A stretch of 64,000 nt of DNA from Minisyncoccia bacterium (GTDB lineage: Bacteria; Patescibacteriota; Minisyncoccia; Moranbacterales; GCA-2747515). The notes beneath the pieces are model-generated. The model had not been told where the DNA came from. It saw only the letters and a list, made by a program, of their open reading frames with translations, and did no database searches. The position numbers were made by a program, and so were the translations under genes. Below are positions 12,599 through 42,749 of the stretch, piece after piece; position 1 is the stretch's first letter; each line of letters begins with the position of its first letter. The stretch spans positions 193,899 through 257,898 of the forward strand of contig JBGSQF010000013.1 in assembly GCA_041738235.1 (NCBI GenBank). Reading direction: 5' to 3'.

Positions 12599-14365
12599 TT
12601 AATCTCCAATAAACCCGCCGGCCTGCTGCTTCCAAAATGTTGCGTATACCCCCCCTTGATCCACAAGGTCTTTATGCCTCCCCTCTTCCACTACCCTTCC
12701 ATTTTCCACAACTAAAATACGATCCATTTTTTGTATCGTGCTTAAGCGGTGCGCAATAACGATCGTCGTTCGCTCCCTCATAAGTGCATCCAATGCCTCT
12801 TGAATATACTTCTCGCTCATGCTATCCAGTGAACTGGTTGCCTCATCAAGCACTAAGATCGGAGCATCCTTGAGCATCGCTCGAGCGATCGCCACGCGTT
12901 GCCTCTCACCGCCAGAGAGCTTCACGCCCCGCTCTCCCACCAACGTATCGTATCCTTTGGGAAGACTTTCAATAAACTCATGTGCACGAGCCTGCTTGGC
13001 GACAGCAATGATCTCTTCGTCAGTTGCTCCCAACCTTCCATAGGCAATGTTTTCTCGAAGTGTTCGATGAAAAAGAAGGGGTTCTTGTGGAACATAGGAG
13101 ATGCTCCTCCGCAGATCATCCTGACGAATCCGTCGAATGTTCTGTCCATCAATAAGCACCGCTCCGCTGGACACATCCAAGAAGCGAAGGAGTATTTTTG
13201 TGATTGTGGTCTTTCCAGCGCCACTGTGCCCAACAAGCCCAACCTTCTCCCCAGGATGGATATGCAAAGAAAAGTTCTCAAATATCTTTCGATTCCCCTT
13301 TTCATAAACAAAAGACACCTCTTTAAATGCAATATCACCTTTTGTGATATGACACTCTTCAGAGCGTTTTGGATCCCGTACTGAAGGTCTCTTTTCAAAG
13401 ATCTCCACCATTTCCTTCGCATCCGAAAGGGATTTCTCGATATCCATAAGAGCGCGACCAAATCCCCATACCGCGTCGAACGTTCCAAATATATATATCT
13501 GCACAAGCATGATCGTACCCACAGATACCTGTCCTTTGCCCCAAAGGTACACTGTAAAATACATGATCCCAAACTCCAGCACGATAAATAAAGCACCCTG
13601 AATGGCTATTGAATAATTTCTCATAAGCCATGCTCTTCGACGAACACGCTCCCAAAGAGAGGTTGTTTGTTTAAAAGATCGAAGTTCCCGACTTTTTAAG
13701 CCAAACAACTTTATTGTCAACGTATTGCTCACTGTATCCGCGTATTGCGCGATAGACCGAGAGTCCATACTTGCCTCTTCAAGATCATACGGCATCTTTT
13801 TTCGAGAAAAGTATAAGGACAACCAAATAAATAAAACGATCCAGATAAAGTACAATAAACCAATGATCGGCACACTCAAAAGCAACACGATCAGTGACCC
13901 GATCGCCTGAACGGAACGAAATACAATATGCCAAAGAAAGTTATTAAACACCGAGGAAAAAGATCCAATAAATCTCTTGGTCTTCGATACCAATGATCCC
14001 GAAAAATTATCTGCGAAAAAGACATAAGATTGTTCATGCACTTTCTGAAATGCGTAATCGGCAAGATCCCGAAGAACATTACTTTCAAAAAAAACACCAA
14101 AATAATCTCCGAGACGAAACAAGACATTATAAATGATAATAGCCCCTCCCAATACCCACACCCACATAAAAATACTCGAAATAGCCTCATCACTCATAAC
14201 ACCAAGGGATGCCACATCAATTATTTCTTTGTAGATCAAGGGCACGATCGTATTGGCCAATATGCCGGCTATAACATACAACACAAAAACGGCGATCCCT
14301 GATCTTGGATATTTTCTGGCTTGTAACCAATAATACTTAAGTATGGTGCGCAGCGCTCTGTTCAC
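12599..14365 (-). CDS. ABC transporter, fused permease/ATPase exporter (MsbA-like)
   Basis: Six N-terminal TM segments plus the NBD, with Walker A GHSGAGKTT, signature LSGGERQRVAIARA and Walker B ILVLDEATS. Confidence 0.9.
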   Translation of the reverse strand: MNRALRTILKYYWLQARKYPRSGIAVFVLYVIAGILANTIVPLIYKEIIDVASLGVMSDEAISSIFMWVWVLGGAIIIYNVLFRLGDYFGVFFESNVLRDLADYAFQKVHEQSYVFFADNFSGSLVSKTKRFIGSFSSVFNNFLWHIVFRSVQAIGSLIVLLLSVPIIGLLYFIWIVLFIWLSLYFSRKKMPYDLEEASMDSRSIAQYADTVSNTLTIKLFGLKSRELRSFKQTTSLWERVRRRAWLMRNYSIAIQGALFIVLEFGIMYFTVYLWGKGQVSVGTIMLVQIYIFGTFDAVWGFGRALMDIEKSLSDAKEMVEIFEKRPSVRDPKRSEECHITKGDIAFKEVSFVYEKGNRKIFENFSLHIHPGEKVGLVGHSGAGKTTITKILLRFLDVSSGAVLIDGQNIRRIRQDDLRRSISYVPQEPLLFHRTLRENIAYGRLGATDEEIIAVAKQARAHEFIESLPKGYDTLVGERGVKLSGGERQRVAIARAMLKDAPILVLDEATSSLDSMSEKYIQEALDALMRERTTIVIAHRLSTIQKMDRILVVENGRVVEEGRHKDLVDQGGVYATFWKQQAGGFIGD

Positions 14366-14400
14366 AAAGAATCGTTAATGCCAATTTGAGTTAAAAATAT

Positions 14401-14865
14401 TCACCACGTGATCCTCTTATATCTTCCCATAAGTTCTGCCTGCTCGAGCATGTGTCCTTCGATAGCACGGAGTAGCTCTGCTTTCGAAGAATCTCTTTCG
14501 AGATCAAGGACAACATCAAGTGCATATAACCGAAAAAAATACCGATGCTCTCGATCTGGCGGACAGGGCGGTGTCCAGTCATGACGACCGCTCGTATTAA
14601 TACCAATAGTGCCAACTGGAACTCCTCCCTCAGTTATACCCTGTGTTTCAGGCGACATATTCCACACAAGCCAGTGGTTCCACATTCCATCCTCACGAAC
14701 ATACTGCGGAACATCCGGATCTTCCACAATAAGAACCAAAGATACCGCGTTCTGAGGAACACCTTCAAATACAAGCGGTGGACTGACACGCTCTCCGTCA
14801 CACGTGTATTTCGAGGGGATCCTCTCTCCGTTCTTGAATTGTGTACTCGTGATCTGCATATTCAT
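14401..14865 (-). CDS. YbhB/YbcL-family PEBP (Raf kinase inhibitor-like) protein
   Basis: The HRYFFRLYALD and DPDVP motifs are diagnostic of bacterial PEBP. Confidence 0.85.
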   Translation of the reverse strand: MNMQITSTQFKNGERIPSKYTCDGERVSPPLVFEGVPQNAVSLVLIVEDPDVPQYVREDGMWNHWLVWNMSPETQGITEGGVPVGTIGINTSGRHDWTPPCPPDREHRYFFRLYALDVVLDLERDSSKAELLRAIEGHMLEQAELMGRYKRITW

Positions 14866-33864: not shown

Positions 33865-35490
33865 ATGGAAACACTCTACCGAAAATACCGTCCCAAGAAC
33901 TTTTCTGAGGTAGAAGGACAAACACACATCGTTAAAACCCTCAAAAATACTATAACAGCCGGACGAATAGGTCACGCCTACCTTTTTACCGGACCCCGAG
34001 GAACAGGAAAGACCACCATTGCTCGAATATTCTCCCTTGCGCTCAACTGTCTCAAACCAAAGAATGGCGACCCCTGTGGCAAATGCACCAGTTGCCTCAA
34101 GATCCTTAAGGGATCCTCTCTCAGCATCATAGAGATCGACGCTGCTTCCCATACCGGAGTAGACAATATTCGACAACTGCGTGAAGAAGCGATCCTTCCA
34201 CCACTCGATGGCGCACGCTACAAGGTCTACATCATCGACGAAGTGCATATGCTTTCCAAAGGTGCCTTTAACGCACTGCTCAAGATACTCGAAGAACCAC
34301 CCAAGCACATCATATTCATTCTCGCCACCACCGAAATACAAAAGGTCCCCGAGACCATTATATCTCGCTGTCAACGATATGACTTTGGTCGACTCCCTCT
34401 CGGAAACATCATCGACAAACTTTCTCGCATCGCCAAAGAAGAAAAGGTAAAGCTCGATCCGGAAGTATTGGAGATGGTGGCTGTGGCTTCAGCGGGAGGT
34501 ATGCGAGATGCAGAATCCCTCCTCTCTCAACTCTTTTCAGCCAACGATAAAGACATCTCCGCAAAGGAAGCAGAAGAGATCCTTGGTTTTTCCCATCGTC
34601 ATACTGTTCGTGCCTTCATTGACGCCCTCGTCGAAAACAATATACTTCAAGCGCTCCGCTACATCGAAGAAGCATCAGAGAACGGATACAATCTCGACCA
34701 CTTCGTAGAAACTCTGCTGTACCAATTAAGACGAATGCTTTTTCTTCGCGTCTCACCCGATATGCAAAATGATCTCAAAAATGAAATGACCAAAGAAGAA
34801 CTCACCAAGGTGCTTGAGCAGATCAAGCCTCTCTCGCTCTCTTGGATCGTTCGTGCCATTGATACCTTCCTTGCGGCACGTATCTCCATGCGATCCTCTT
34901 TTCTCCCTCAGATCCCTCTCGAAACAGCTGTGGTAAAGATCCTCGATACAGCGTCTACCACAACACCTCCTCCCACTCCTCCCGCTAACAACACACAACC
35001 AAAAACGCAACCCACTTCCGCACCTCAAAAAGAGAATGTTCCAACAACAAAACTTGCTCAAGAGGTCAAGGTCGATACCCCCAAGATATCGAATGCTGAA
35101 GATACCCCTTCCCCATCTTCTCCATCTGAAGAAGATCTTCCAGAGCCTTCCAGATCGCCCCAACGAGCCTCATTTTCCCTCGAGGAGGTCTTTACCATAT
35201 GGCAACAGTGCCTTGACCAAACAAAGGAAAAAAATGCACTCCTTGGAACATTTTTACGCAATAGTAGCGTGACCAAAACAGAAGGAAACTCGGTGTTCAT
35301 TACCACCTCCAGTGAATTCTACAAAAGCGCTCTCGAGAAACAAGAAAATCGTTTGACAATAGAGACTATTCTAGGTATCCTTTTAAACACTCGTGTTTCT
35401 ATTCACATCAGTATTGGAGTTCCTGAGGCAGAAAAACCGGATCCACTCATCCAAAATGTCATAGAGGCATTTAGAAATGCGATCGGATAA
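33865..35490 (+). CDS. dnaX: DNA polymerase III subunit gamma/tau
   Basis: AAA+ clamp-loader motifs GPRGTGKTT and DEVHMLS, a Zn module CxxC..C..C, SRC and a Pro/Thr-rich linker. Confidence 0.95.
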   Translation: METLYRKYRPKNFSEVEGQTHIVKTLKNTITAGRIGHAYLFTGPRGTGKTTIARIFSLALNCLKPKNGDPCGKCTSCLKILKGSSLSIIEIDAASHTGVDNIRQLREEAILPPLDGARYKVYIIDEVHMLSKGAFNALLKILEEPPKHIIFILATTEIQKVPETIISRCQRYDFGRLPLGNIIDKLSRIAKEEKVKLDPEVLEMVAVASAGGMRDAESLLSQLFSANDKDISAKEAEEILGFSHRHTVRAFIDALVENNILQALRYIEEASENGYNLDHFVETLLYQLRRMLFLRVSPDMQNDLKNEMTKEELTKVLEQIKPLSLSWIVRAIDTFLAARISMRSSFLPQIPLETAVVKILDTASTTTPPPTPPANNTQPKTQPTSAPQKENVPTTKLAQEVKVDTPKISNAEDTPSPSSPSEEDLPEPSRSPQRASFSLEEVFTIWQQCLDQTKEKNALLGTFLRNSSVTKTEGNSVFITTSSEFYKSALEKQENRLTIETILGILLNTRVSIHISIGVPEAEKPDPLIQNVIEAFRNAIG

Positions 35491-35561
35491 AGATAGAACG
35501 ATCCCTTCCCCTGTATTTCCCATTATAGGAAGGTTTGTTGTTGTTCAGGGATCAATAAAAT

Positions 35562-35633
35562 TGGGGCGTAGCCAAGCGGTAAGGCAGGGGCCTTTGAAGC
35601 CCCCATGCGTAGGTTCGAATCCTACCGCCCCAG
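35562..35633 (+). tRNA. tRNA-Gln (anticodon UUG)
   Basis: The cloverleaf aligns position-by-position with E. coli tRNA-Gln: U1-A72, D-arm GCCAAGCGGTAAGGC, anticodon loop CUUUGAA and T-arm GTAGGTTCGAATCCTAC. No CCA is encoded. Confidence 0.85.
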
Positions 35634-35640
35634 CTAACAA

Positions 35641-35676
35641 AATATTCCACCCTTCTTGGGTGGAATATTTTTGTTT
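35641..35676 (+). terminator. Intrinsic terminator after tRNA-Gln
   Basis: 12-bp stem AATATTCCACCC/GGGTGGAATATT with a 5-nt loop and a T-run. Confidence 0.65.
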
Positions 35677-35869
35677 AGACACAGTAGGATTTGAACGGGA
35701 GGGGATCGGGGAACGGAAGCTCCCCGTCGGGGGTGACCAAGTCTATCTGTTCTAATAAATAGATGAGGACAAGAGGACGGAAGCCTTATTGAAGCGAAGC
35801 GTGTGAGATTCCTACCGCTCTAGTACCCTACTAAAAATACCCCTATAAAGCCATTTTTTTGTTACGTGC

Positions 35870-36415
35870 TTGACAATGAGTATAAAATATGCTATACTCT
35901 CATGTTACAGTACAGTTCTTTACAAGGATGTCATTGCTAATTCTTCCTATATCGAAGGGTATTGGGCTGGAAAAGTTGGAGAGAATTGGCAAGCTCTTAT
36001 CCAAGCCTCCTACTTCTCCCTGGGTTACCTCAACAGCACCAGGGACGCCGACACCATCCAGATTAAGAGTCGACTGCAGTACACAGGGTGGATGGTTCGA
36101 CCTTTCGTTGATGTTCGAGGGCAATACTTTCTCCCCACCGGGGAGGCAGGTGTTGCCTATTCCGCCTTCGGTGCTGAATGGAGTACTGAGACCCGCCTCG
36201 GGACACTCTCTCTATCGGGACTGACAGCATATGACTCAACGCCGTTTCTCCCCAACCATGCCTGGCTCGGAGAGGTCGATGCCGGCCTCTGGCATTCCTT
36301 GGGCAAAAATACTCAAGTTGGCGCTTGGGGGAAGTGGATCACTCCCCTCTCCAGCTTCAATAGCGAAGAACGTGGAGGCCTTGTCGCCGGGATCGGATTC
36401 AAGCATGTTTTCTAA
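35870..36415 (+). CDS. Hypothetical protein with an outer-membrane-barrel-like C-terminus (…GIGFKHVF)
   Basis: 181-aa ORF in a compositionally distinct stretch just 3' of the tRNA. It has alternating hydrophobic residues and a terminal aromatic Phe. The start is uncertain and no signal peptide is apparent. Confidence 0.3.
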   Translation: MTMSIKYAILSCYSTVLYKDVIANSSYIEGYWAGKVGENWQALIQASYFSLGYLNSTRDADTIQIKSRLQYTGWMVRPFVDVRGQYFLPTGEAGVAYSAFGAEWSTETRLGTLSLSGLTAYDSTPFLPNHAWLGEVDAGLWHSLGKNTQVGAWGKWITPLSSFNSEERGGLVAGIGFKHVF

Positions 36416-36759
36416 CTAATGATGGGGATGTACAAGGACGTGCACTCCTCCAGAAGGATCTTTCAGGATAAGAAAGATCTTCGATCAGCAAGGAAGCTCA
36501 ACATATCTATGTTGGGCTTTTAAAATTCTTAGATTTGCTTACGGTGTGCAAGATATGAGTTCCATATCATCCCCTATTCGTATAGCTTCATAAAAAAATA
36601 GCCCAGAAGAGCTATTTTTTATTTTTTTTCAATGAATACAGGTAGCTAGAATACAGATGGCTACTGAGCCCCTACCCTCTCGCCGTCAAGGTCGCTCGGG
36701 GACCCGCTCTCTTGGCTGTGAGTGTCATGCATTACAGATATCGGAGCTAGAACCTCAAT

Positions 36760-37264
36760 TTAAAACATTCTCAAATGTTTTACCAAGAAAGCATCATTCT
36801 GCGCGTGGGCTGTTGGAATATGAATAATGGGAAGATTGGCATTTTTGTATACTTTATCTACAAATTCGTCTCGTTTCCTTCTCCAATAATTTCTATGTGA
36901 TTCCCCATCCAATTCTATGGCAACGAGAGGGAAAGAAGTTTTCCGATCGCACAAAAGAAAGTCAACGTGCTTGGATTGTATCTTGTTTCGTAAAACGGCC
37001 TTTGTACTTTGGCTTTGATTTTGTACAACACTAAAAATATCCCAAAGGCGCACTTTCGAAAGAACGACGTATTTATCCCCCACAACGCGTGTGATCGATC
37101 GTATCGTAAAATTTTCTTTCCGAATGGTTAAACAGTGCTCGTATCACATACATTGGCTCGGTCATTTCCTCTACCATCTTCCTCTGTCGTTTTTTTAGGT
37201 ATGCCCCAAACAAGACTAGAAAGAGAAAAAGTATAATGAGAACGAGCAGAAAGATGTATTGCAT
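36760..37264 (-). pseudogene. DUF2726/NERD-like nuclease-fold gene split by a frameshift at a G5 run (~37075-37083)
   Basis: The N-terminal TM segment plus ...SERKFYDTIDHTRCGG* (37073..37264) and DKYVVLSKVRLWDIF...DFLLCDRKTSFPLVAIELDGESH (36760..37083) are contiguous DUF2726 sequence in two frames. Removing one G from GGGGG fuses them. Confidence 0.55.
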
Positions 37265-37462
37265 ATTTTTTTCAATAAAAAAGATCCCACATCGGCAATA
37301 CTCTTTCTGGCACTCATGCCACTTTCGAGATATAACCAAATACATGATACCGATCGCGAGACCGTTACTATGTACTTGAATTTGAGACCATGCCCTAGCA
37401 AAAACTATGGTTTAGGCCTATAATTCAGTTGTTGGCAATATTATATCACATTCTGAAACATT

Positions 37463-38053
37463 ATGCTTGTTGTTTGCAACACAGAAAACCTAGTTCAAGA
37501 TGTGTCAAGCATTATTACTGCTTTAGCTACAATTGCGGGTGTTTTGCTTGCAATAAAAGGATTTAGCACATGGAAAGATCAATTAAAAGGAAAGACTAAC
37601 TATGAGCTTGCAAGGAGATATTTGAGGGCCGTTTACAAGGTCAGAGATGCAATAAAATTTGTCAGAAATCCTTTTATACCAGTTGAAGAAATGAATGCAA
37701 CACTACAAGAAACCGGAAAAGACCTCGGCAGTAATAACAAAGAAACAAATAGGGCTGTCTATAGTCTTCGATGGAAAAAAGTCAATGAGGCTGAGTCTGA
37801 TTTGAAAGTCGAGCTTTGGGAGGCTGAGGTGTCATGGGGAAAGAAGGCATTGTCAGTTGAAGAAGATTTTCATGATTGTATAGTAAAAATATTTGTTGCT
37901 CTAAAAATGTATCTGGATACTGGAAATGCTTACGAAAGAAAAAAAGAGGATAGAGATTTAATTTATGACATGGGAGAAGATGACAAATTTAATCAAAATG
38001 TAGAGCAGGCCATAAAGAAGATCGAGAATTACCTTGCTCCACACTTAAAATAA
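37463..38053 (+). CDS. Uncharacterised small protein with one N-terminal TM helix (AT-rich cassette gene A)
   Basis: 196 aa with a TM segment SSIITALATIAGVLLAIKGF followed by a charged helical domain. It is markedly AT-rich relative to its flanks. Confidence 0.5.
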   Translation: MLVVCNTENLVQDVSSIITALATIAGVLLAIKGFSTWKDQLKGKTNYELARRYLRAVYKVRDAIKFVRNPFIPVEEMNATLQETGKDLGSNNKETNRAVYSLRWKKVNEAESDLKVELWEAEVSWGKKALSVEEDFHDCIVKIFVALKMYLDTGNAYERKKEDRDLIYDMGEDDKFNQNVEQAIKKIENYLAPHLK

Positions 38054-38055
38054 GC

Positions 38056-38664
38056 ATGTTGCGAAAAACCCTAGTATTTTTACCGATAGTAGTCAGCATC
38101 TTTTTAGCAATCGCCTACTTTCGTTATTTTAATCGAGGAATTGATTTTTGGGATAGTATAATTGGAATATTTTTATCATTGGTCTCCGGTATACCGTTTG
38201 CACTCTGGATTGATGGCCTAATCAAAACTAAAGAAGAAAATGAAAGGATGAGGATGGATCGACTGAGGGAGAAAGATATACTCATGTTCATAAAACAAGA
38301 AATAGATTTTAATTCGAGGTTAATTTTAGATCTTCAAAATAGAGATATTAAAAATGCGAGTTTCCATCCTTTGCAAATAGAGATGTGGGAGGTTTTAAAG
38401 AGTTCAGGTGATTTAAAATTGATTTTAGATACCGAATTACTTAATAGAGTTACCTCTGCATATGATATCATTTCTAAAGTAAAGCACTTTGAAGAAAAAG
38501 CACTGGATAACTGGAATGTCAATAATAACTCGGATAACATAGGGTCAACTTGGCAAGTACAACTAAACCGAGCAAAAAATTTTTACGGTTTATTGGATAA
38601 ATCTATGGGTGAAGCAACTGGATCAATTTCAACAAGAATAAGCGAAATCGATAAAAAATTTTAA
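38056..38664 (+). CDS. Uncharacterised 2-TM membrane protein (AT-rich cassette gene B)
   Basis: 202 aa with two N-terminal TM helices and a soluble ~140-aa C-terminal domain. It is separated from gene A by 2 nt, so the two are probably operonic. Confidence 0.5.
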   Translation: MLRKTLVFLPIVVSIFLAIAYFRYFNRGIDFWDSIIGIFLSLVSGIPFALWIDGLIKTKEENERMRMDRLREKDILMFIKQEIDFNSRLILDLQNRDIKNASFHPLQIEMWEVLKSSGDLKLILDTELLNRVTSAYDIISKVKHFEEKALDNWNVNNNSDNIGSTWQVQLNRAKNFYGLLDKSMGEATGSISTRISEIDKKF

Positions 38665-38748: not shown

Positions 38749-38857
38749 CCATCATCCTAACACCCCCCTACTTGAGAAATAATTTTCGCACCTTTTAGTA
38801 ATATTTAATGAATATCGACATTTTTTTATACCAACATTCAGAGAATACCCTATCTCA

Positions 38858-41477: not shown

Positions 41478-42749
41478 CTAAGGCCCATGAGATATGGCCG
41501 TTCCAGCCACAAATCCCGTTGTCCAACAAAGTTGTAAGCTATATCCACCCGATGGCCGATCAATATCCAAAACATCTCCCACTATATAAAGATTGGGATA
41601 AAGACGTGACCGCATATATTTGAAGTCCACTTCTTTGAGATCAACACCTCCACTCGTTACGATCGCTCTTTCTTCACCCAAGAGATCAATTATGCTCACG
41701 CGAAGGTCTTTACATATCCGAACAAGTTCCGCACGTTCCTTTCGAGTGACCGTAGATGAAACCTTATCAGGATGAATACCTGCAAGCTCCAAAAAGGTAG
41801 AAGCGCAAATGGGTGGAACAAATCCACTCAGTGCATTTTTCATCTGCTTGTTCTTTTGTTCATTCAGATGTGCCAGAAACTCCCTATCCAACTCCTCATA
41901 ATTCAAATGAGGAAATAGATCGATGGAAAGAGGTACTTCTCCTTCGTGGAGAAGTTCTCCGATACGTCGGCTTCTATTAAGTGCTAGCGGACCACTGAGC
42001 CCAAAATGCGTAAACAAAAGTTTTCCCTTTTTAGGCTCCTTCTTCTTGCCTTCCCGAATGACCGACAGCGTTGCCTCCGAAAAACTCGCCCCGGACATTC
42101 GGCCTATCCACTTTTCTTTGACACGTAGTGGCACCAAAGCCGGGCGTGCCATCTCTACCAAGTGTCCAATGCTCCTCAGCCACTTAAATCCATCTCCCGT
42201 CGACCCCGTTTCTGGATGAGACTTCCCGCCCGTTGCCAGAATGTAAGCATCTGCCGAGATCACTTCTCCATTTTTCCGACGAACACCTGTAATAACGCCA
42301 TTCTTTGCTTCCAATCCCATAACCTCTGCGTGAAATACTATATCCACTCTGCCCTTCTCCATATACCGTCCAAGAGCATCCCAAATAGATTGCGCATTAT
42401 CACTTGCAGGGAACACCCTCTTTTCCGCCTCCACCTTTATCGGAACATTCCATTTCTCAAAAAAGTCCAGTGTATCCTGAACACCAAATTGTGCCATTGG
42501 AGAAAAAAGGAACTTTTTAGCATCACCAAATTTGCCCAAGAATATATCCACATCAAACTCAGCATTGGTCACATTGCATCGCCCTCCTCCCGTCAAGAGA
42601 AGCTTCTTGCCTAAGGACTCATTTTTCTCCAACAGCAAAACACGTGCACCCAGTTCAGCTGCCCGCCCTGCCGACATCATTCCTGCCGGCCCACCCCCTA
42701 TAACCACAACATCGTATTTGGTCATTTGAATAAACTCATCACGTATCAA
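41478..42749 (-). CDS. HI0933/BaiN-family FAD-dependent oxidoreductase
   Basis: YDVVVIGGGPAGMMSAGRAAELGARVLLLEK FAD-binding motif and the diagnostic TGGGRCNVTN. Confidence 0.85.
   Translation of the reverse strand: MIRDEFIQMTKYDVVVIGGGPAGMMSAGRAAELGARVLLLEKNESLGKKLLLTGGGRCNVTNAEFDVDIFLGKFGDAKKFLFSPMAQFGVQDTLDFFEKWNVPIKVEAEKRVFPASDNAQSIWDALGRYMEKGRVDIVFHAEVMGLEAKNGVITGVRRKNGEVISADAYILATGGKSHPETGSTGDGFKWLRSIGHLVEMARPALVPLRVKEKWIGRMSGASFSEATLSVIREGKKKEPKKGKLLFTHFGLSGPLALNRSRRIGELLHEGEVPLSIDLFPHLNYEELDREFLAHLNEQKNKQMKNALSGFVPPICASTFLELAGIHPDKVSSTVTRKERAELVRICKDLRVSIIDLLGEERAIVTSGGVDLKEVDFKYMRSRLYPNLYIVGDVLDIDRPSGGYSLQLCWTTGFVAGTAISHGP

Follow-up and report, generated by a model that had tools for sequence, protein, structure and literature searches.

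What lies directly 3′ of the tRNA-Gln gene of a Minisyncoccia bacterium, and did it arrive there as one element? We addressed this question in a window of 64,000 nucleotides (nt) of contig JBGSQF010000013.1 (assembly GCA_041738235.1); positions given without a contig name are counted within this window, which has a mean guanine-plus-cytosine (GC) content of 44.5%. A preliminary description of this DNA had pointed to T-arm-like fragments 3′ of tRNA-Gln, an open reading frame (ORF, 35870-36415) with a barrel-like C-terminus, a DUF2726 gene and an AT-rich cassette, and had proposed a mosaic island of ~3 kb integrated at tRNA-Gln. Our analysis indicates that the 3′ end of tRNA-Gln is probably a recurrent site-specific insertion site, with 35634-36760 as its decayed residue. 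In itself the locus is nothing unusual, a decayed hotspot linked to a tRNA and containing a pseudogene; the lead of interest is a family of barrel proteins borne by genomes of the Candidate Phyla Radiation (CPR).

Copies of the tRNA-Gln 3′ end

We identified seven metagenomic relatives of the window through dnaX, at 60-87% identity (L-numbers, such as L001 and L084-L097, denote metagenomic contigs; P0002 and P0004 are proteins encoded on L001 and L091). The tRNA-Gln gene is intact (Table 1) and its linkage to dnaX is kept in seven of seven related lineages examined, with either UUG or CUG as the anticodon in relatives. The sequence 3′ of tRNA-Gln differs in every relative recovered (L084, L085, L086, L088 and L096 included). 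Synteny of the whole 35.6-38.8 kb block in all relatives, which the preliminary description had named as evidence against its proposal, is therefore not found. In the closest relative, L084 (dnaX 87% identical at the amino acid level; 80% nt identity over 2.6 kb), similarity to the window ends 6 nt past the tRNA. In L096, a GIY-YIG endonuclease gene (1707-2081) begins inside or just past the 3′ end of tRNA-Gln.

Two relatives carry perfect repeats of the tRNA end. L097 (dnaX 60% identical) has a 25-nt sequence, CGAATCCCTCTTCCCCAGCAACAAA, at the end of the tRNA and again 219 nt later. This repeat begins exactly in the T-loop, and no tRNA similarity precedes the second copy; a terminator follows each copy, and the tRNA end also recurs in inverted orientation shortly past the first terminator. 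In L086 (dnaX 62% identical), a perfect 19-nt repeat lies 1227 nt from tRNA-Gln, with a Bax1-I gene between the copies. A terminator follows the repeat, and behind it lies a GGNTTYGAACGGG block that matches window positions 35688-35702. Perfect repeats in the same layout in two relatives thus suggest that tRNA-Gln has probably served this lineage repeatedly as an insertion site.

The window contains imperfect counterparts of both types of copy. GTAGGATTTGAAC is located at 35684-35696 and GATTCCTACCGC at 35807-35818. A repeat search recovered the first as an inverted repeat of 35613-35625 (13 nt, 92% complementary) and the second within a direct repeat of 35617-35633 (17 nt, 82% identical, spacing 190 nt), the repeat of the tRNA 3′ fragment that had been suggested as a check. 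Single 9-13-nt matches of such quality occur ~22 times in the window. We therefore consider the two pieces jointly: when all window positions were scored against the last 26 nt of tRNA-Gln (15- and 18-nt scoring), no other minus-strand site in 64 kb matched as well as the inverted piece (13/15), and the direct piece was the joint best plus-strand match (14/18), tied with two other loci. Two top-ranked matches that both lie within 200 nt of the tRNA are jointly beyond chance. These comparisons support the derivation of both pieces from tRNA-Gln, and the window fragments appear to be a degraded version of the layout that L097 and L086 preserve in sharp form. The earlier interpretation of the T-arm-like pieces, in both orientations, as att-site scars is supported by the 25- and 19-nt repeats of these relatives.

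The terminator and the inverted copy form a recurring arrangement. The window terminator is ~85% identical to the L086 terminator that stands behind the displaced tRNA 3′ end, with one compensatory change. It is the centre of an extended hairpin (35613-35696; minimum free energy -40.4 kcal/mol, z -6.95), of which the inverted piece is the outer arm. Inverted copies are also present in L086 and L097, and each matches the tRNA of its own lineage. The module of tRNA 3′ end, terminator and inverted tRNA copy may be the functional end of a tiny, undescribed tRNA-targeting mobile element.

Similarity to the tRNA in the window may reach back from 35807-35823 to the anticodon loop (35783-35818), which raises the alternative that the second piece is a tandem tRNA-Gln duplicate that decayed in place. 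A gapped similarity indeed runs from the anticodon loop (GCCTTATTGAAG versus GCCTTTGAAG) to the 3′ end, with a score of 20 against a background of 13.4 ± 2.0 that was equalled in 15 of 1488 windows, and the mixture of UUG and CUG isoacceptors among relatives would fit a history of duplication. Against this, the L097 repeat starts in the T-loop and is perfect over 25 nt without tRNA sequence upstream, a pattern of site-specific recombination; the copies in L086 are separated by 1.2 kb of cargo; and no second tRNA is called here by ARAGORN or by the Rfam tRNA model. We consider a decayed duplicate quite improbable.

The segment between the window repeats (35697-35806) is poorly conserved and cannot be aligned between lineages. 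GC-rich hairpins had been noted 3′ of the tRNA, and one is present in this segment (CGGGGA-ACGGAAGC-TCCCCG). A further alternative is that 35.68-35.83 kb encodes a small structured RNA with ends that mimic or pair with the tRNA T-arm, or else that the ORF downstream is a functional short protein; we regard this pair of possibilities as highly improbable. In favour of an RNA, pairing over a distance of ~120 nt is possible between GTAGGA in 35684-35696 and TCCTAC in 35807-35823, and the inverted copies track the tRNA of each lineage. The fold of 35678-35826 is nevertheless no more stable than that of shuffled sequence (z -0.01), its middle is not conserved, and the tRNA is the sole Rfam match at E ≤ 10 over 35400-37000. 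A structured RNA in 36600-36749 was likewise ruled out (z +0.36).

We also searched viral contigs for the tRNA 3′ end as a possible attP site; all 13 exact matches are complete tRNA-Gln genes. Separately, the L086 DNA past the tRNA-Gln hotspot (13345-14798, minus strand) encodes a reverse transcriptase (best PADLOC model RT_VI, E = 3.1e-31), which we read as a probable type VI retron-type enzyme. A gene for a helix-turn-helix protein lies upstream of it.

The ORF at 35870-36415 and its barrel family

The ORF has a TTG start, encodes 181 amino acids (aa) and ends in GIGFKHVF. It lies in a GC-rich stretch (55-57% at 36.0-36.45 kb). A word-based search of 5.8 billion proteins returned only the ORF itself and P0002, a protein of 242 aa that is 71% identical to it and is encoded on the 1.1-kb contig L001; two Logan contigs that are 100% identical to the window (L002 and L003) carry the ORF itself. 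The N-terminus of P0002, MQRATLFALSLLVLLATSAVSANG, reads as a Sec-type signal peptide (signal peptides in P0002 and its family were called by eye in the alignment, from a hydrophobic leader). The first 88 residues of P0002 have no counterpart in the window. The window ORF lacks a signal peptide, and its first 26 residues are unrelated to P0002. A frameshifted N-terminus upstream was ruled out, as tblastn of P0002 residues 1-88 gave no match in the window.

Homology between the window and L001 extends beyond the coding region on both sides. Upstream, 35849-35908 combines a sigma-70 promoter (TTGACA at 35870-35875, a 17-nt spacer and a TGcTATACT -10 element at 35893-35898) with the tail of another terminator, which has since decayed (GCCATTTTTTTGTT). 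This segment aligns with L001 at a score of 31, compared with 18.1 ± 2.2 for shuffled sequences; the score was reached in 0 of 300 shuffles and 0 of 399 genomic windows. Downstream, the terminators of the two cassettes differ by a compensatory A-T to G-C change. Since promoter, coding region and terminator are all homologous to L001, ~300 nt appear to have been deleted internally: at the junction, L001 has ~340 nt that comprise the 5′ untranslated region, a GGAGG ribosome-binding site, the ATG, the signal peptide and the first 87-88 codons.

The window copy retains part of strand 4 and strands 5-12 of the predicted barrel, and strands 1-3 are gone. Its product could neither be exported nor close into a barrel, which argues that the copy is a pseudogene; we judge the ORF likely to be a 5′-deleted remnant and not a working gene. 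The alternative that it encodes a functional short protein draws on the open frame and the strong promoter ahead of it. It is countered by the nominal TTG and ATG starts, which lie inside or upstream of the promoter -35 box and have no Shine-Dalgarno motif, and by the loss of the signal peptide and first strands. The ratio of nonsynonymous to synonymous substitution rates (dN/dS) between the window copy and L001 is 0.06 (NG86) to 0.14 (YN00), with synonymous sites saturated. This low ratio suggests that purifying selection acted on the gene during most of its history and that the deletion is recent relative to the divergence. The barrel dN (0.18, window versus L001) is also close to that of dnaX (0.14, window versus L085). 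Divergence similar to that of housekeeping genes suggests that the barrel cassette is a long-term resident and not a recent arrival.

These observations are consistent with the following history. A mini-insert of ~190 bp, resembling an integrase-less remnant of an integrative element, would have entered directly 3′ of the tRNA, carrying a strong terminator, an inverted copy of the T-arm and a 3′ end that replaced that of the tRNA. The previous 3′ end would thereby have been displaced to 35807-35823, where the copy and its terminator have since decayed. Next to it would have stood a promoter-gene-terminator cassette for a Sec-exported, 12-stranded porin-like barrel, from which an internal deletion of ~300 nt removed the ribosome-binding site, the start codon, the signal peptide and the first strands. 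The strong promoter of the remnant probably still fires. We infer both a tyrosine-type integrase as the maker of the insertions and the order of events.

Several points weigh against a recurrent insertion site with a decayed barrel gene. First, the window direct repeat matches at just 14 of 17 positions. Second, recurrent insertion and a shared ancient insertion are indistinguishable here because the central part of the 190-bp unit defies alignment between lineages. Third, we found no integrase or recombinase among the Pfam matches of the ~38 window ORFs scanned (most ORFs of at least 150 aa). Fourth, there is a single close homologue of the ORF, on a 1.1-kb contig, so the deletion is deduced from one comparison. 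Finally, a frame of 181 codons is still open behind a near-consensus promoter, and residual expression or function may persist.

A HMMER scan with P0002 as query against 1.84 billion representatives identified 44 relatives. The window copy is the sole short member; the other proteins have 231-333 aa, and all but one of them have 231-267 aa. AlphaFold2 modelled P0002 from a 36-sequence alignment with 12 long strands and a signal helix at residues 2-15 (predicted local distance difference test 91.7; predicted TM-score 0.82). Foldseek comparison of the model with the PDB returned outer-membrane barrels only: NanC, KdgM, Tsx, OmpG, FapF, general porins, FadL and autotransporter barrel domains. The full-length protein is thus confidently predicted to be a closed, 12-stranded porin-like barrel. 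Most of the 36 aligned members have F or W as their final or penultimate residue, and a few end in Y, I or A. A C-terminal aromatic residue is the signal recognised by the β-barrel assembly machine (BAM). P0002 and the window ORF have no Pfam or NCBIfam match even at E ≤ 10, and the family profile has no match among PDB sequences. A homologue search with the 181-aa ORF had been proposed, and its outcome is mixed for the barrel-like C-terminus described earlier: the homologue that it recovered models as a barrel and the family is of porin type, but the window ORF is a probable remnant, and its annotation as a functional outer-membrane protein gene would be inappropriate.

An intact member, P0004, is encoded on L091, 4.5 kb from a TypA gene that is 76-79% identical to TypA of Moranbacteria/Patescibacteria. 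Its adjacency to an OTCase gene recurs in an independent JGI assembly. A search of JGI metagenomes for the family returned the already known P0004 contig alone, and none was found in IMG/VR viral contigs. L001 and L085, the latter a relative of the window, stem from one sample. On these sequence affiliations we place intact family members in Moranbacteria-type CPR contigs. Upstream of the P0004 gene, L091 also contains a direct repeat of ~120 nt (1-120 and 261-380).

The closest barrel genes differ in composition from the DNA around them. Those of the window (35949-36415), L001 (159-887) and L091 (574-1326) have 54-57% GC inside DNA of 41-45% GC, and third codon positions reach 58-62% GC in the window copy and L001. 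More distant members, in contigs of 40% (L094) and 56% GC (L095), match their surroundings. In the closest subfamily, either something maintains the GC-richness or the genes would come from a GC-rich donor pool.

The host itself is supported as CPR-like, of Moranbacteria/Patescibacteria type, because the best named matches of dnaX in a large protein collection are Candidatus Moranbacteria or 'Patescibacteria group' (46-49% identical); this agrees with the CPR-like host proposed before. A scan of GTDB species genomes gave a best dnaX match of only 40% identity and hence no close relative, and a look-up of the exact window dnaX sequence retrieved no record. The window carries housekeeping and peptidoglycan genes (pheST, argS, alaS, murC, murG, ftsW, recJ, smc and rnc), and no outer-membrane biogenesis gene was detected among the window ORFs scanned, that is, in 64 kb of the host. 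CPR bacteria are described as part of a monoderm clade that has lost porins (bioRxiv 10.1101/2021.05.31.446380). In paper searches we found no report of porin-type barrels in CPR bacteria.

We tentatively raise the possibility, which we think more doubtful than not, that a Moranbacteria-related CPR lineage encodes Sec-exported, 12-stranded porin-type barrels under purifying selection. Such barrels might belong to an unrecognised outer barrier, or the cells might place them in the outer membrane of a host bacterium and so gain access to what it contains. If this is true, the window copy represents one lineage in the course of losing the barrel gene. The family is unannotated and rare, with 44 clusters among the 1.84 billion representatives. 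Barrels that are truly encoded by CPR bacteria and functional would provide a handle on how epibionts build their envelope or tap their hosts.

Extent of the extra DNA and neighbouring features

L097 has 130 nt in place of window positions 35.85-42.75 kb, which amounts to ~6.9 kb of extra DNA in the window relative to L097 (with no outgroup). This extra block includes cfa, a gene for a protein of 358 aa and an HI0933-like gene. Synteny with L097 resumes at a HIT gene (42781) and continues through RmlD, NUDIX, exonuclease and HhH-GPD genes at 45.3-49.6 kb. The preliminary description had treated cfa as native flank; relative to L097, cfa lies inside the extra block.

We confirmed the DUF2726 gene, which we take to encode a member of the PD-(D/E)XK superfamily with its nuclease fold. 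It is split into two overlapping ORFs of 90 and 107 aa (36760-37345, minus strand) by a frameshift in a run of five Gs on the coding strand (CCCCC on the plus strand, ~37076-37080). With four Gs the gene reads through as ...DHTRCGDKYVVLSKV..., and the frameshift may be genuine, which would make the gene a pseudogene, or it may stem from a run prone to slippage or from an error in the assembly. We also detected a LOOT RNA (Table 1) on the same strand, ending 33 nt upstream of the DUF2726 start; this position would fit a 5′ leader of DUF2726. The LOOT motif is here assigned to a CPR-type genome, beside a gene of presumed nuclease fold. Between the barrel remnant and DUF2726, an A/T-flanked hairpin at 36593-36620 (AAAAAATAGC...GCTATTTTTT) looks like a bidirectional terminator.

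The AT-rich cassette is likewise present (32-37% GC at 37.5-38.7 kb). Both of its ORFs encode N-terminal hydrophobic, possibly membrane-spanning segments, and neither matches a Pfam family. The second has a weak match to KwaA of the Kiwa defence system (E = 0.0026), and PADLOC found nothing beyond this match in the AT-rich ORFs and DUF2726.

Together these features bear on whether everything from 35.6 to 38.8 kb entered at tRNA-Gln recently as a single island, with cfa as the native flank. The mosaic composition (55-57% GC, then 32-37%), the break in similarity to the closest relative exactly at the tRNA, the absence of the block from L097 at the same site and the defence or mobile-type content (DUF2726 and the weak KwaA match) all accord with such an island. 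The att-like repeats bracket just ~190 bp, however, and no tRNA repeat beyond chance in the window bounds a block of 3 or 7 kb on the right. The best candidate near 38751 (11/15, counted by eye) is at chance level, as this score is reached at 97 plus-strand positions in the window. Another at 42678-42695 (13/18), where the block that L097 lacks ends on the right, is probably a coincidence because it falls in the region that encodes the GGGPAG FAD-binding motif of the HI0933-like gene. Moreover, the GC-rich and AT-rich parts point to separate origins, the barrel cassette is as diverged from L001 as dnaX is between relatives and shows purifying selection, and the extra DNA relative to L097 extends to 42.75 kb and includes cfa. 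The ~3-kb mosaic island is thus unlikely. Given the lack of an integrase among the ORFs scanned, the lack of a right-end repeat and the opposite compositional biases of the parts, we read the locus as the probable product of piecemeal gain and decay at a hotspot.

Table 1. Features identified at and downstream of tRNA-Gln in the 64,000-nt window.
Feature	Position	Strand	Basis
tRNA-Gln, anticodon UUG; probable insertion target	35562..35634	+	ARAGORN; Rfam 67.9 bits; relatives
Intrinsic terminator: perfect 14-bp stem (35639-35652 / 35658-35671), then T-run	35639..35678	+	
Inverted copy of tRNA T-arm	35684..35696	+	12/13 complementary to 35613-35625; best minus-strand match
GC-rich filler between repeats, including hairpin at ~35709-35728	35697..35806	.	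Alignments, fold z, Rfam
Apparently decayed direct repeat of tRNA 3′ end, in the position of a putative attR scar	35807..35823	+	14/17
Terminator tail and sigma-70 promoter, homologous to L001 20-79	35849..35908	+	Promoter scan 11/12; local alignment
Putative deletion junction, ~40 nt versus ~340 nt in L001	35909..35948	+	
Probable remnant coding region of 12-stranded barrel gene, equivalent to P0002 residues 89-242	35949..36415	+	71% aa, 69% nt identity; GC 54%
Barrel-cassette terminator: hairpin 36497-36516 and T-run	36487..36527	+	Conserved with L001 964-1004
DUF2726 (presumed PD-(D/E)XK-type) gene split by +1 frameshift	36760..37264	-	Pfam E = 5.7e-23; frame analysis
LOOT RNA (Rfam RF03000), full length	37297..37418	-	59.1 bits versus gathering score 46.4; model positions 1-121
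Two AT-rich ORFs, 196 and 202 aa, GC 32-37%	37463..38664	+	ORF list, GC, Pfam, PADLOC

Comparison with known systems

The barrel family appears to be distantly related to an uncharacterised family, Gcw_chp (Pfam accession PF09694), which we take to be a predicted outer-membrane β-barrel family equivalent to TIGR02001. Weak matches to PF09694 were found for 13 of the 36 aligned members (best E = 3.4e-7), and the family appears to be a divergent branch of Gcw_chp. The two share a size of ~245 aa, a signal peptide, an all-beta barrel and a C-terminal aromatic residue. They differ in that the closest subfamily, which includes P0002, sits on Patescibacteria-type contigs and that P0002 and the window copy themselves have no family match.

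In fold, P0002 resembles the small 12-stranded porins KdgM and NanC (Foldseek probability 1.00), with target-normalised TM-scores of 0.73 for KdgM (4pr7, root-mean-square deviation 3.9) and 0.65 for NanC (2wjq). In sequence, KdgM, NanC, Tsx, OmpG and FapF are just 8-12% identical to P0002.

The insertion site resembles those of tRNA-gene integrative elements and their integrase-less remnants of the cis-mobilisable type. The putative insertion point abuts the 3′ terminus of a tRNA gene without disrupting it, a directly repeated piece of that terminus delimits the distal side, and among relatives the site bears differing cargo and has grown by tandem accretion. In contrast to such elements, the locus described here has no integrase in the ORFs scanned and brackets a unit of just ~190 bp, and an inverted copy of the tRNA end lies directly past the terminator in three lineages.

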